This document shows positions 10,777-60,679 of a DNA stretch of 64,000 nt, in pieces. The translations under genes were made by a program, and so were the position numbers. Source of the DNA: Escherichia phage vB_EcoM_PD205; sequence record ON922919; one strand, given 5' to 3'. The notes under the pieces were generated by a model. The model ran no database searches. It was not told the DNA's origin and worked only from the letters and a program-made list of their open reading frames with translations. Each line of letters begins with the position of its first letter. Within the stretch, counting starts at the first letter, position 1.

Positions 10777-11106
10777 ATGAATGAATCTGGTGAGCTGCTC
10801 CTAGTCAGACTGGAGGAACGATTGAAGACTCTGTTTGAGAACCAGACGAGAGACAGGCAGGACCGAGAGAAACTGGAGGAAACTCTGGTAGAACTACGGG
10901 ATTCAATCAACGACATAGGCAATAGACTAAAAAATGTGGAGGATAGTTTAGCTAAGAACGAACCTACTATTGAAGAGTTCATCACCATTAAGCATAAAGT
11001 TGTTGGTGCAGGAATTTTTGGTAAGTGGGTGTGGGCTGGGGCAGGTGCAATTATTGGTGTATTAGCTGCTGCAAGACGGGAGATATTCGCATGGTTCGCA
11101 GGCTGA
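10777..11106 (+). CDS. membrane-anchored coiled-coil protein (possible holin/antiholin component)
   Basis: 109 aa; charged N-terminal coiled coil and one C-terminal hydrophobic segment GAGIFGKWVWAGAGAIIGVLAAA; directly upstream of endolysin. Confidence 0.35.
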   Translation: MNESGELLLVRLEERLKTLFENQTRDRQDREKLEETLVELRDSINDIGNRLKNVEDSLAKNEPTIEEFITIKHKVVGAGIFGKWVWAGAGAIIGVLAAARREIFAWFAG

Positions 11107-11351
11107 AAAGAAAGGTAGAGTTAGTACCTAACTGGAAAAGATGCTGGAAGTGGGCATCCATTCAGATTAGTACGCTTGGGTTAATTATGTTTTCTGCCAT
11201 AGATATCATTCAACCAATGCTGACAGGATTACCTCGTCACATCCTGGAAGATATTCCCCATGGTTCCAATATTGCAATCGCACTGTTTGCCCTAAATATT
11301 GTAGGCAGATTAATACGATTCCGACCAAAGGAAGATTCACATGAAAGCTAA
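11091..11351 (+). CDS. putative holin (two transmembrane segments)
   Basis: about 87 aa from internal Met; two hydrophobic helices and charged C-terminus; immediately upstream of endolysin. Confidence 0.45.
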   Translation: MVRRLKRKVELVPNWKRCWKWASIQISTLGLIMFSAIDIIQPMLTGLPRHILEDIPHGSNIAIALFALNIVGRLIRFRPKEDSHES

Positions 11352-11976
11352 ACAGAAACTTGCTGCGAAAGGTGGTGCAGTGGGAGGAGTTGTCGCTGCT
11401 ATCCTGGGGGCAGTGTTTTATATGGAAGGGGGATACGTAAACAACCCTCGTGACCCAGGTGGAGAAACTAATCATGGCATTACCCAATCGGTAGCTAAGA
11501 CTCATAAAGAAGTTCTGGCTACTGAGTATGGTTGGGATGGTTCTATGAAAGGTTTATCTAAAGAGATGGCTGCTGAGATATACATTGATGACTACGTACT
11601 TAAGCCTAATTTCGTAGCCTTCGCTGATATATCTCCTGCTGTAACACACAAGCTGGTAGATGCTGGTGTTAACACTGGTGTAACCCGTCCTGCTAAGTGG
11701 TTGCAGCAATCTCTTAATGAAATGTCCCGTGATGGCAAAGACTACCCTAAAATACAGGTTGATGGTAAAGTCGGTACAAGTACTGTTAATGCATATAAAG
11801 CATTACAGAAAAAACGAGGCAAAGTTGCAGCATGTCAGGTAATGATTAAGTTACTCGATGCCAAACAACTGAACCACTACACCTCATTAAACATGTCAGA
11901 CTTTACGTATGGTTGGGTAGCTAACCGAATAGGCAATGTGCCACTGGAGGCATGTAATGAAGATGCTAATCTCTAA
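11341..11976 (+). CDS. endolysin, GH108-type N-acetylmuramidase with N-terminal SAR-like segment
   Basis: 211 aa; EGGYVNNPRDPGGETNHGIT matches the GH108 catalytic motif; N-terminal Gly/Ala-rich weakly hydrophobic stretch GGAVGGVVAAILGAVF. Confidence 0.75.
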   Translation: MKAKQKLAAKGGAVGGVVAAILGAVFYMEGGYVNNPRDPGGETNHGITQSVAKTHKEVLATEYGWDGSMKGLSKEMAAEIYIDDYVLKPNFVAFADISPAVTHKLVDAGVNTGVTRPAKWLQQSLNEMSRDGKDYPKIQVDGKVGTSTVNAYKALQKKRGKVAACQVMIKLLDAKQLNHYTSLNMSDFTYGWVANRIGNVPLEACNEDANL

Positions 11977-12463
11977 AGGTTGGCCTTATCTTCTGGTGGT
12001 GGTCCTAGGGGCCACCATTTACTTTTGGGGTAACTCCAATGGACAGTCCACTGTTCAAAAGAAGTGGGATGACCAAAAGGTTGAAGATCAAAAGGCACTA
12101 CAAAAATTACAGGACAAATACAATGCTCTCCAAAGAAACCATAGTTATGAAGTCGGGTTACTCACTTCCCGGTTGCAGACGGCTGAGAGTAATTATGCAA
12201 GCGAGCTTGCTCGCGTTAGCAGTGATTACGACAGCCGGATGCAACAGTCTGAAAGACGAGCATCGGTATATAAACGTCAAGCCGAAGCCGGAACCTTTGA
12301 GTGCAGAAGTCTTGCAAGCCATGCAGCCAGACTCGACAACAGTCTTGAAGAAGGCAGACGTTTGGTTGAAGAACTCAGGGCAACTGTTAGACTCCGTGAC
12401 AGCCAACTAATTGAGTTGGGTAAACAGATTCAGGCTGACCGTAAACTTTTTGAACAGGAATAA
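11936..12463 (+). CDS. i-spanin (Rz-like)
   Basis: 175 aa; N-terminal TM helix then coiled-coil-rich periplasmic domain; immediately after endolysin. Confidence 0.6.
12195..12410 (+). CDS. o-spanin (Rz1-like lipoprotein) embedded in the +1 frame of the i-spanin gene
   Basis: 72 aa from ATG at 12195; signal peptide [16 protein letters not shown] with lipobox Cys; Pro-rich mature part; wholly inside the Rz-like ORF. Confidence 0.6.
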   Translation: MQASLLALAVITTAGCNSLKDEHRYINVKPKPEPLSAEVLQAMQPDSTTVLKKADVWLKNSGQLLDSVTAN

Positions 12464-56343: not shown

Positions 56344-56583
56344 TTACTTACGATTTTGTTCTACAAATCGTATCATTTGTTTTTTTACTTCTTCTTGCTC
56401 ACGAATCGCTTCGTAGTCGCGAGCAATATAGTAAATACACCATAAACCAACCTCACTTACGAAGAACAGAATACTAGCTTGAAAGAACTGCATATCTGTT
56501 TCTAATGTAAAGGCGACTTTGTATGCGAAGATTAATGTGAGTAGGGCACTAGTTAGCATTGCGTACAGAGCTAGTTTTTTCAT
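56344..56583 (-). CDS. small membrane protein (two TM helices)
   Basis: 79 aa with two hydrophobic segments. Confidence 0.4.
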   Translation of the reverse strand: MKKLALYAMLTSALLTLIFAYKVAFTLETDMQFFQASILFFVSEVGLWCIYYIARDYEAIREQEEVKKQMIRFVEQNRK

Positions 56584-57524: not shown

Positions 57525-57967
57525 TAGAATGACCTTAGATAGTTGGTGATACCACTTCTCGTCTCTGTGATTCTCTTAACCTGAACATATACCAGCTTAA
57601 ACTCACTACGAGGTAGTTCTTGTAATACTGCTACACCTTCAGTAAGAGCCACAGAACACGCTACAGCGGTTTCTTTTTTAAAGGAGTACAAGTCTTCATA
57701 CATGAGGGCTTCATACTCTTTACGGAGCATACAGAGAGCATTTCTTGCCTTATCACTTACTTCTCGTGAACCAGCAGACATAGCTAAGCTGTATATGATA
57801 AAGACTTGTTCGAAAACAAAGTCCAGTAATCTATCAGGGTTGTTAGTCCCCATAAATAATTTTGTTATGTAGGAACGGGCTTTACGGTTGAGTTCATACT
57901 CATCCTCTATACCTTTATTATACAGAACAGGATTTCGTTCCCTTTTTCTTAGGAATGGGATACGCAT
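57524..57967 (-). CDS. hypothetical protein
   Basis: 147-aa ORF, start overlaps upstream stop. Confidence 0.35.
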   Translation of the reverse strand: MRIPFLRKRERNPVLYNKGIEDEYELNRKARSYITKLFMGTNNPDRLLDFVFEQVFIIYSLAMSAGSREVSDKARNALCMLRKEYEALMYEDLYSFKKETAVACSVALTEGVAVLQELPRSEFKLVYVQVKRITETRSGITNYLRSF

Positions 57968-58347
57968 TAGTATTTACTACCTCTTCTATACCAGGGGTAG
58001 TGGTGGGTAGTGCTCTTACCTTTGAACACATCCTTAGTACGAGGATTCTTTTGTATTTGAGCCAGATAAAGTTGCGTATCATCCTTACATGGGTTAAGCC
58101 AGAACTTATCTATGATTCGGTCTACCTTAGATTTCAGATGTGGTTCTGGAGGAATGTATGAAGGAAAAGGTCTGGTAGTAGTCCATTTTTTCTGAATAAG
58201 AGTCTGCATTGTTGCATAAAGATCTAATTCAATTTCACTCGCCACTTGGTCATGGATAGTTTTACCCAAAGCAAGCATTGCAGTTTGTTCTAGTTTACTT
58301 AAGTCCAGCCCATACAAGATAGACTTACCATTTTGTCTGTTTGTCAT
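57967..58347 (-). CDS. hypothetical protein
   Basis: 126-aa ORF. Confidence 0.35.
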   Translation of the reverse strand: MTNRQNGKSILYGLDLSKLEQTAMLALGKTIHDQVASEIELDLYATMQTLIQKKWTTTRPFPSYIPPEPHLKSKVDRIIDKFWLNPCKDDTQLYLAQIQKNPRTKDVFKGKSTTHHYPWYRRGSKY

Positions 58348-58363
58348 AAGAGTACCTGTAATT

Positions 58364-58390
58364 AAAAAAGCCCACGGGTTAGGTGGGCTT
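58364..58390 (-). terminator. intrinsic terminator
   Basis: AAGCCCAC...GTGGGCTT hairpin preceded on + strand by AAAAAA. Confidence 0.6.
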
Positions 58391-58462
58391 GGGTTAGGAG
58401 ATGGATAAGCAATGAGCTGGAAGTATCTTCCAGTAATAGCCTCGTGAGACTATTACGGTTAA

Positions 58463-58741
58463 CTACTCTGCTTTACTGCCACCATTGGTTTGAACAACAG
58501 TTACATTCGTAACCTGGTTCTGACCTTTGTTGGACAGTGCCCAAATAAGTGCTACTACCCAGAATACTAGTGACCAGCCTAATACGATATTGAGCACACC
58601 AATACCCCACTTAGAGGCATGGCCTCGTGCAAAAGCAATGATAGTAGGGATAAGGTATACAGCTAATACAAACAACATAACAAGGATTGCTGCTAAAGAT
58701 TCCATGATGGTTCCTATGTGGGGTTGAGTTAGTTTCTTCAC
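58463..58741 (-). CDS. superinfection-immunity-like small membrane protein
   Basis: 92 aa; two TM helices; AFARGHASKWGIGVLNIVLGWSLVFWVVALIWAL resembles the Imm_superinfect family signature. Confidence 0.45.
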   Translation of the reverse strand: MKKLTQPHIGTIMESLAAILVMLFVLAVYLIPTIIAFARGHASKWGIGVLNIVLGWSLVFWVVALIWALSNKGQNQVTNVTVVQTNGGSKAE

Positions 58742-58778
58742 AAATAGCCCAACTATGCTGGGCTATTTAGGCAGCTAC

Positions 58779-58988
58779 TTACTCAGCATCTTTGCTTGCA
58801 GGAGCAAGAGCTTTCTTCAGGTAATTACGTACCGAACGATAGGTTTCTTTGGTGTCCATAGTACTATCATTTACGAATGTGATACGTGCACAATCAGACA
58901 GTGGAATTTGTTCCACTCCTACTACATTTGCAGCATTAATGGTTACACGTACATCTGAGGTTGCATGAGTTACTTGAAATACTGACAT
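58779..58988 (-). CDS. hypothetical protein
   Basis: 69-aa ORF. Confidence 0.3.
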   Translation of the reverse strand: MSVFQVTHATSDVRVTINAANVVGVEQIPLSDCARITFVNDSTMDTKETYRSVRNYLKKALAPASKDAE

Positions 58989-58997
58989 GTTGTTTCC

Positions 58998-59504
58998 TTA
59001 TTTACTGCTTCTTGCAGCTATTGGTTTGTTTTCCTGGTTCTGATACTTGCCATTGTAATTAGCAGGTTCCTGAACCAGATGAAATAATACTTGAGCTATC
59101 CCAGAACCAGCCGGGATATGCAATTTCTTACGACCATGATAAACCAGTTCAAGAGTCAAATACCCTTTCCATCCTGGTTCTATTACGGTATTGAATACAG
59201 ATAATGCACGTCTTGCCCATGTAGACTTATCGTGAACGATAGCTACACAGGATGGGGACATGTTGAACTTCTCAATTGCTGAAGCCAATGTGAATTTACC
59301 GAGATGGCGTGATACTTTGTTTCCATCAACGACCTTCACTATTGGAATCAACCCAAATAAGCGATAGAAGGTGATATCTTGTTTGATACGAATATCGTAA
59401 CCGGCTTCGCCCAATCCATAGCTTACACCATGCTCGGATATCTTACGGTCTGGGACATCCAGCAACTGAGATGAACGATATAGAGAATTACCGTTAACAA
59501 CCAT
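58998..59504 (-). CDS. dCTP deaminase/dUTPase-superfamily protein
   Basis: 168 aa; VIEPGWKGYLTLELV matches the family D-P-G-x-x-G-x-x-T-L-E-L signature. Confidence 0.5.
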   Translation of the reverse strand: MVVNGNSLYRSSQLLDVPDRKISEHGVSYGLGEAGYDIRIKQDITFYRLFGLIPIVKVVDGNKVSRHLGKFTLASAIEKFNMSPSCVAIVHDKSTWARRALSVFNTVIEPGWKGYLTLELVYHGRKKLHIPAGSGIAQVLFHLVQEPANYNGKYQNQENKPIAARSSK

Positions 59505-60679
59505 TATTTCATTCCTTTAGGGATATGAACTACCTCCCCAAAAGGTATGGTAGCATTAGGATTATTCAGAACACACCAGATGATAGGGATATCAAATGGC
59601 AATTCTTCCATTGGACGAACATACATATCGGAGAATATGATTGCAGCGGTTGGCTTATTTTTAATAATCCATTCGCGTACTGGTTCCAGGTTTGTACCAC
59701 CACGACCAGTAATCTTAATCTCTTCGAATGTATCTTCTTCAGTGATGTCTATCTCTTCTTGAATAACATCGTCGAAGGTAATTAGTGACATCTTCCTAGG
59801 ATTGAACTGGCTCTTAACGTAGGCAACCTCTGAGTTAAAACGCAGAGAGTCAGCACTACTAATAGAACCAGATACATCCTCAAAGTAGGCTAAGTGCCGT
59901 AAGCGTCCTTCATCATCTTCCAGTGATGGTAGATAGATATCAGTGTAACGACGGTTAGGTCTGGCCCACGTATAGTGTGTGTCATCAATGTCGGTAAAGA
60001 AGTTCATCAGAACTTCCTGCCATGGAACCACTGGTTTAAGGAATTGGGTAATAACCTCTTCTATACGTCCAGCACCTTTACCAGGCATCTGTCCACCAGC
60101 CATCTTCTGGCTCTGCATTGCACGTACTACGTTGTTGACAACAGCACCCTGGGACTGACCCGAAGTGGGGGATTTCATGTCGCCAGCAAGACCTGCTCCA
60201 GCACCCCCCGACGGCTTCTGCCTTTTCTGAGGGTTCTTCATCAGGTCATCGTAGATGTCTTCTTCGACCCAATCCTTATATTGAGGGTCTTTGCAAATGC
60301 CTTTGTCAATACCAGTGAACTTGTAACCATCTTCCTCTAACTGAAGGTTAATGAAGTGGTCACATGCCTGGTTCCAAACTTCCGGGTCACGGCTTCCACG
60401 ACGGATGTCATGTAGATATGCTACATGCCAGAGTTCGTGCATTAATACTGTTTCTCTTGCATCTGGACACATCCAGATAAAGAAATCAGGATTGAAATGG
60501 AGTTCTATCCCATCAGTACATGCAGTGGGACAATCTTCACGTTTCCATGAGAATTTAAGACTACACAGTAATGAACCAAAGAAGGCTGCGCTGCGTCCGA
60601 GAAACGCCTGCGCCTGAATACGGTCATACTCACGCATGAGTTGTTCATCACTAAGTGTGTGCTGAGGAAATTGGTTCAT
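59504..60679 (-). CDS. vWA-like protein with HExxH metallopeptidase-like motif (partner of AAA+ ATPase)
   Basis: 391 aa; HELWHVAYLH motif; translationally coupled downstream of MoxR-like ATPase. Confidence 0.45.
   Translation of the reverse strand: MNQFPQHTLSDEQLMREYDRIQAQAFLGRSAAFFGSLLCSLKFSWKREDCPTACTDGIELHFNPDFFIWMCPDARETVLMHELWHVAYLHDIRRGSRDPEVWNQACDHFINLQLEEDGYKFTGIDKGICKDPQYKDWVEEDIYDDLMKNPQKRQKPSGGAGAGLAGDMKSPTSGQSQGAVVNNVVRAMQSQKMAGGQMPGKGAGRIEEVITQFLKPVVPWQEVLMNFFTDIDDTHYTWARPNRRYTDIYLPSLEDDEGRLRHLAYFEDVSGSISSADSLRFNSEVAYVKSQFNPRKMSLITFDDVIQEEIDITEEDTFEEIKITGRGGTNLEPVREWIIKNKPTAAIIFSDMYVRPMEELPFDIPIIWCVLNNPNATIPFGEVVHIPKGMK

Follow-up and report, generated by a model that had tools for sequence, protein, structure and literature searches.

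Can a small membrane protein, encoded among the nucleotide-metabolism genes of a virulent N4-like E. coli phage, be an exclusion protein of the type known from T4? The question is raised by a short gene on the minus strand of the 64,000-nucleotide stretch of phage DNA analysed here (the window), which the original prediction had described as encoding a 92-aa protein with two transmembrane segments that resembled the superinfection immunity family in a lytic phage. The setting was described correctly, in that the phage is a virulent N4-like podovirus. The window is Gamaleyavirus DNA (Schitoviridae, Enquatrovirinae; the G7C/Bp4 group of N4 relatives): over 6 kb around the gene, DNA identity to PE007, PD38, Bp4, St11Ph5, ECBP1 and IME11 is 91-93.5%, and the window also contains an ORF of 3,590 aa, the size of a virion RNA polymerase.

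The gene (here called imm) is already known. It is annotated in dozens of Gamaleyavirus genomes and falls within curated Pfam and PHROG families. The label 'gp27.1, membrane immunity protein' has been in use for its orthologues since phage G7C; the G7C and Bp4 annotations read 'gp27.1, similar to Imm of phage JS98', RefSeq gives 'immunity to superinfection', and the Bas96 annotation is 'superinfection immunity protein; moron'. A genome paper on a Moo19-like Shigella phage, published in 2026, also lists this gene (PMC13153029).

Extent and reality of the gene

In the list of open reading frames, the locus appears as a 92-aa ORF with a GTG start (58463..58741, minus strand), and the peptide from which the family resemblance had been read, AFARGHASKWGIGVLNIVLGWSLVFWVVALIWAL, is indeed present inside this ORF. 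Two hydrophobic segments were also found as described, but the length of 92 aa did not stand, as the ORF is over-extended and its product is probably 80 aa long. The most likely coding sequence starts at an internal ATG:

58463..58705, minus strand: imm-like CDS, 80 aa plus stop, MESLAAIL...GGSKAE, with its ATG at 58705
58706..58741, minus strand: 12-codon N-terminal extension from the GTG, most likely a 5' untranslated leader and not coding
58712..58715, minus strand: Shine-Dalgarno AGGA, 6 nt upstream of ATG 58705, read from the sequence

The choice of ATG 58705 is based on the spacing of this Shine-Dalgarno element and on three further observations. The 13-bp stem of the hairpin at 58741-58769 includes the G of GTG 58741 as one of its paired bases. 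Orthologues start with ME in every sequence aligned, and are 80 or 86 aa long in most of the 75 homologue clusters, which were found in a collection of 5.8 billion proteins and come mostly from phage contigs of about 72 kb. Finally, the Shigella phage Moo19 keeps an AGGAG Shine-Dalgarno and the ATG, but the sequence that separates its hairpin from the ATG bears no relation to that of the window and is not in frame. On the hairpin pairing and the Moo19 comparison, GTG 58741 was rejected as the start.

A short ORF that is flanked by hairpins and missing in N4 and phi G17 might be suspected of being a spurious reading frame in an intergenic region, but we give this almost no credence. Estimates of dN/dS (Nei-Gojobori, codons 1-62) were 0.12 against Bp4, 0.16 against G7C, 0.13 against Moo19, 0.075 against Bas96 and 0.12 against PhAPEC7, so that the protein is clearly under purifying selection (0.08-0.16 across the five orthologues). 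The core is still conserved in Moo19 at a dS of 1.6, and the ORF has both a Shine-Dalgarno element and the strong profile match described below; selection and profile evidence thus refute the suspicion. The GC and GC3 contents of imm are not atypical (0.424, compared with 0.434 for the window), so that base composition gives no hint of a recent transfer.

Membership of the Imm family

That the window protein is a member of the Imm family is, in our judgement, virtually certain. The 80-aa form matches the Pfam family PF14373 (Imm_superinfect) over the full model (1-42 of 42) with an E value of 6e-17 and 61.7 bits, far above the gathering score of 27.9; this was the profile search that had been set beforehand as the check, and it was positive. 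On this model the 92-aa version reaches 61.2 bits and T4 Imm (NP_049660, from NC_000866) 58.2 bits. Similarly, PHROG 1039, 'immunity to superinfection', is matched with an E value of 9.4e-31 (108 bits), and BLASTP aligns the window protein directly with T4 Imm (28% identity over 61 aa, E 8e-10). Across 19 aligned sequences, T4 Imm among them, 13 columns do not vary: M1, E2, P20, I23, A24, G28, S31, G34, I35, W44, W49, I54 and W55. These two family matches, the alignment with T4 Imm, the invariant columns and a shared design make membership secure, and the resemblance originally proposed is thereby borne out.

The shared design can be seen at several levels. Both T4 Imm (83 aa) and the window protein (80 aa) are stand-alone proteins with two helices, a basic inter-helix loop and a polar tail, and their PF14373 scores are similar. 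Furthermore, both are encoded by virulent phages, beside nucleotide-metabolism genes that are expressed before the late genes in T4 and, by synteny with N4, probably also in the window phage. However, the two proteins are only 28% identical, and T4 is a contractile-tailed myovirus, whereas the window phage is a podovirus with an N4-type ejectosome.

Much closer relatives are the gp27.1 proteins of other Gamaleyaviruses (G7C YP_004782154, PhAPEC7 LD35_gp28, Bp4 orf62 and Bas96_0062), which are orthologues that share the locus, the flanking genes and the terminator. Their 62-residue core is 85-98% identical to that of the window protein, and PhAPEC7 has the 80-aa form with a few substitutions, but among these relatives the C-terminal tail takes several forms and the first hairpin downstream of imm is mostly unlike that of the window. 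Outside the Gamaleyaviruses, the nearest phage homologues are those of Acinetobacter Obolenskvirus (AP22, IME-AB2) and of T4-like Klebsiella and Citrobacter phages (Merlin, KP179). These are 41-53% identical over residues 1-60 and are annotated as superinfection immunity proteins, although their tails and genomic contexts are unlike those of the window; no experimental tests of these homologues were found in the literature searched. Other collections returned little: no family at E<=1 among the anti-phage defence profiles of PADLOC-DB, a sub-threshold match only in NCBIfam (E 0.19) and, when PDB sequences were searched with the family profile, chance matches to PsaM only (E 0.24).

Predicted architecture and the C-terminal tail

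Kyte-Doolittle hydropathy of the 80-aa form peaks near residues 7-25 and 35-57, and T4 Imm also has two peaks. An AlphaFold2 model, built with 28 orthologues, places helices at residues 2-27 and 32-62, joined by four loop residues, and leaves 63-80 as a disordered tail, with a mean pLDDT of 69.6 (about 80 in the helices and below 50 in the tail). The predicted layout is as follows:

Residues ~2-27: transmembrane helix 1
Between the helices: basic loop RGHASK
Residues ~32-62: transmembrane helix 2
Residues 63-80: polar, disordered tail

With two hydrophobic helices, the protein is predicted to be located in the inner membrane. Under the positive-inside rule, the basic residues of the loop (R27, H29 and K32) suggest that the loop is inside and that the N-terminus and the C-terminal tail are outside. 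A Foldseek search against viral models gave a single marginal match (E 1.1e-3), to IME-AB2 K4NXW2, which is itself an Imm homologue; a fold as simple as a helical hairpin makes this result uninformative.

Among orthologues the membrane core hardly varies and, as far as the aligned sequences can tell, the tail is the sole fast-changing part of the protein. Tail codons 61-80, which correspond to window positions 58463-58525, are modular among orthologues. The 80-aa type, NQVTNVTVVQTNGGSKAE, is found in the window and PhAPEC7, and the 86-aa type, SQTTIVNVGSGNQYNVSQTSQSDK, in G7C, Bas96 and Moo19; hybrid tails occur in St11Ph5 (83 aa) and in the homologue P0017, which ends in SSKAE. The 67-aa annotation in Bp4 results from a 1-nt frameshift, and the 80-aa ending is still encoded in the downstream DNA.

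Transcription and the hairpins around imm

The gene sits between homologues of N4 gp26 (dCTP deaminase) and gp27 on one side and of gp28, gp29 and gp30 (ThyX) on the other. Several potential RNA structures lie close to it:

58741..58769, minus strand: upstream hairpin, 13-bp stem with an AUA loop and no U-run, after the gp27-like stop codon (58779-58781)
58433..58456, minus strand: first hairpin after the imm stop codon, GTAATAGTCT-CACG-AGGCTATTAC, the variable hairpin
58418..58432, minus strand: second hairpin, UGGAAG-AUA-CUUCCA, conserved from N4 to the Gamaleyaviruses
58361..58390, minus strand: intrinsic-terminator-like hairpin with T-run, AAGCCCAC...GTGGGCTT, from a terminator scan; it probably closes the imm transcription unit

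When the window, G7C, phi G17 and N4 are aligned, gp27 is followed in each by a module consisting of a variable hairpin, a GGAAG-NNN-CTTCC hairpin and a hairpin-plus-T-run terminator. This three-hairpin module (58361-58456, minus strand, in the window; N4 L002:2035-2147; phi G17 L004:1485-1612) is kept with or without imm. In imm carriers the gene lies inside the module, with one hairpin upstream and a second hairpin, the GGAAG hairpin and the terminator downstream. RNAalifold retained all three elements across eight phages, with compensatory changes at seven pairs, all of them in the variable hairpin. All eight pairs of the terminator hairpin are conserved in the eight phages, N4 included, and this element is annotated as a terminator in PhAPEC7. 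Compared with shuffled sequence, folding was markedly stable both downstream (z = -5.0) and upstream (z = -4.4) of imm. An Rfam search of 57900-59100 gave only a sub-threshold match to Trp_leader (18.7 versus 41 bits), which can be ascribed to the terminator hairpin. Candidate roles for the first two hairpins are termination or pausing of RNA polymerase II, RNA processing and transcript stability.

No sigma-70 promoter was detected upstream of imm on the minus strand. This is to be expected, since the middle-class genes of N4 are transcribed by the phage RNA polymerase II (PMC4496689), and by synteny with N4 the imm block would also be of the middle class. The gene is probably co-transcribed with the upstream nucleotide-metabolism genes, with transcription ending at the shared terminator. 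As imm lies upstream of this middle-block terminator, its product is probably made before late gene expression.

An accessory gene within a hairpin module

Both N4 and the Gamaleyavirus phi G17 do without imm, which is thus an accessory gene, dispensable and variably present. Six-frame profile searches found exactly one Imm homologue in the window (E 3e-43) and none in the whole N4 genome (best E 0.4), where the gp27-gp28 spacer is just 113 bp; nor was there a homologue in the complete phi G17 genome (best E 1.7). Within the imm region, phi G17, Moonfish and Jgk1 match the window at 58358-58441 only.

The way in which this match ends may indicate how the gene has come and gone. In phi G17 (L004:1501-1584), Moonfish and Jgk1 it stops inside the first hairpin downstream of imm, at 58441 (58441/58442). 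Furthermore, the hairpin that follows gp27 in imm-less phi G17 resembles the upstream hairpin of the window, at 58741-58769. Together, these two features suggest that imm was gained or lost by recombination at hairpin sequences. From the comparison with phi G17, G7C and N4, imm may tentatively be described as bracketed by duplicated hairpins; a repeat search of the window itself found no direct repeat formed by the hairpins on either side of the gene.

In N4, gp18 carries the annotation 'superinfection exclusion, similar to P22 gp17', and tblastn with this gene (N4 L018:7668-7982) gave no match at E<=1 in the 64-kb window, with about 8 kb of the genome lying outside it. As N4 has no Imm and the window no match to gp18, the two genera may use different exclusion genes.

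Proposed role in superinfection exclusion

In T4, superinfection exclusion is conferred jointly by Imm and Spackle. Imm is located in the plasma membrane and stops incoming DNA from reaching the cytoplasm; imm mutants also show a partial loss of lysis inhibition and of the resistance to lysis from without (PMC7677548, PMC6832632, PMC10002423). By analogy with T4 Imm, the one tested protein from which the function is transferred, the imm product would be a T4 Imm-type inner-membrane exclusion protein of a Gamaleyavirus, and on balance we consider this likely. It would change the cytoplasmic membrane of an infected cell in such a way that a later phage genome, or the N4-type ejection proteins and virion RNA polymerase, would be blocked at the inner membrane. 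The ongoing infection might in this way be protected both from competitors and from the envelope damage caused by secondary adsorptions.

Exclusion is put less firmly than family membership for several reasons: the PF14373 module is widespread, genome delivery differs between the two phages, identity to T4 Imm is low, N4 and phi G17 manage without the gene, and no experiments on Imm of any N4-like phage were found in the literature searched. N4-like podoviruses deliver their genomes by means of an ejectosome with the virion RNA polymerase among its components (PMC13434306), and given the contractile tail of T4 the step blocked by T4 Imm may have no equivalent here. A bolder proposal is that Imm-type proteins are not specific to T-even phages, that the Imm of the window blocks insertion of the N4-type ejectosome in the inner membrane, and that the swapped, periplasm-facing tail sets which phages are excluded; taken as a whole, we regard this as speculative and rather doubtful. 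If it were true, the imm-less phages phi G17, Moonfish and Jgk1 would be excluded by their imm-carrying relatives and would be unable to exclude those in turn.

The most substantial competing explanation is that the protein is a generic membrane module, for example one that binds or inhibits a host inner-membrane protein, a transporter or a defence component, and that its label is a naming artefact stemming from a single characterised member. Although we think this unlikely, the distribution of the domain lends it weight. A phmmer search of 1.84 billion cluster representatives gave 8,554 PF14373-type matches at E<=1e-3; the best 150 of these are 57-348 aa long, and the domain occurs in thousands of diverse proteins. 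In bacteria it is found with SHOCT, with a zinc ribbon/UPF0547, with TPM phosphatase and LemA, and in tandem (P0184, P0156, P0164 and P0176). Assemblies from Pseudomonadota, Sphingomonadales, Acinetobacter and Chryseobacterium contain the nearest genomic homologues (47-59% identity), and the closest non-phage homologues of all (56-59% identity) likewise come from bacterial genome assemblies. One bacterial homologue adjoins an integrase; the Chryseobacterium copy lies among housekeeping-type ORFs, between M3-type peptidase-like and SEC-C-motif-like ORFs, with no obvious prophage. The bacterial loci examined were L013:3962-4279 and L009:3944-4414. With PF14373 so widespread in other architectures, the family name does not guarantee function. 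The 42-residue domain of the bacterial fusions scores as well as or better than that of the window protein, with 47-59% core identity, and their role is probably not phage exclusion. Unlike the Imm of the window, though, they are multi-domain and chromosomal, and sometimes outside any prophage, whereas the stand-alone architecture of about 80 aa and the virulent-phage, probably pre-late context are common to the window protein and T4 Imm. Many virulent phages that infect Acinetobacter, Klebsiella and other hosts likewise encode stand-alone homologues.

The T4 phenotypes raise the further possibility that the protein acts mainly in envelope protection or lysis timing, by limiting the damage of secondary adsorption and stabilising lysis inhibition. 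N4 does show lysis inhibition on superinfection (bioRxiv 10.1101/2025.11.12.688109), and the window contains rIIA- and rIIB-like genes (a rIIA-like gene is annotated in Bp4, and both are named in phi G17). However, N4 shows this lysis inhibition without any Imm homologue, the N4 lysis-inhibition mutations map to lysis proteins (bioRxiv 10.1101/2025.11.12.688109), and in T4 the lysis phenotype is secondary to exclusion, all of which leaves a main role of this kind improbable. It is very improbable indeed that the protein is a holin or an antiholin. Although it is a small membrane protein with two helices, and although a review states that T4 Imm 'reportedly molecularly resembles a holin' (PMC6832632), there was no holin family among the Pfam matches even at E<=10, and the lysis cassette lies about 47 kb away, at 10777-12463, leaving imm among nucleotide-metabolism genes. 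The holin reading was rejected on these two grounds.

The lysis cassette itself (10777-12463, plus strand) was identified from position and sequence features alone. Its position next to the portal gene is shared with N4 and phi G17, and it is syntenic with N4 gp60-63. Its ORFs encode two small membrane proteins (pinholin- and holin-like) and a 211-aa endolysin-like protein with an N-terminal hydrophobic segment (SAR-like), together with nested spanin-like ORFs.

A T4 Imm-type exclusion role, which we favour, would have practical consequences. Among coliphages, Gamaleyaviruses are candidates for therapeutic use, and phages given together in a cocktail could interfere with one another through an active exclusion gene. 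Moreover, the mechanism of Imm is poorly understood even in T4, and the inner-membrane step that it blocks could be studied by simple comparison in a group in which an Imm homologue faces a completely different genome-delivery machine and some relatives naturally lack imm.

Variability of neighbouring genes

The gene adjoining imm, a gp28-like ORF of 126 aa (57967-58347, minus strand) with no Pfam match above threshold, is also variable between relatives. The window, Bp4, PhAPEC7 and Bas96 have this ORF, and G7C and phi G17 lack it; in Moo19 its position is taken by a different gene, annotated as CDP-alcohol phosphatidyltransferase-like. On the other side of imm, HNH endonuclease insertions occur in relatives at sites corresponding to 59504-60679 and 58988-58998, with none in the window. 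In Bp4, such insertions split the gp25 (VWA-like) gene (L001:5577-6487), whose counterpart in the window is an intact VWA-like ORF of 391 aa; in Bas96, an HNH endonuclease gene lies between the dCTP deaminase and gp27 genes (L007:1448-2014). Finally, directly downstream of ThyX there is an ORF of 79 aa (56344-56583, minus strand), MKKLALYAMLTSALLTLIFAYKVAF...ILFFVSEVGLWCIYYIA, whose product has hydrophobic stretches and a charged C-terminus.
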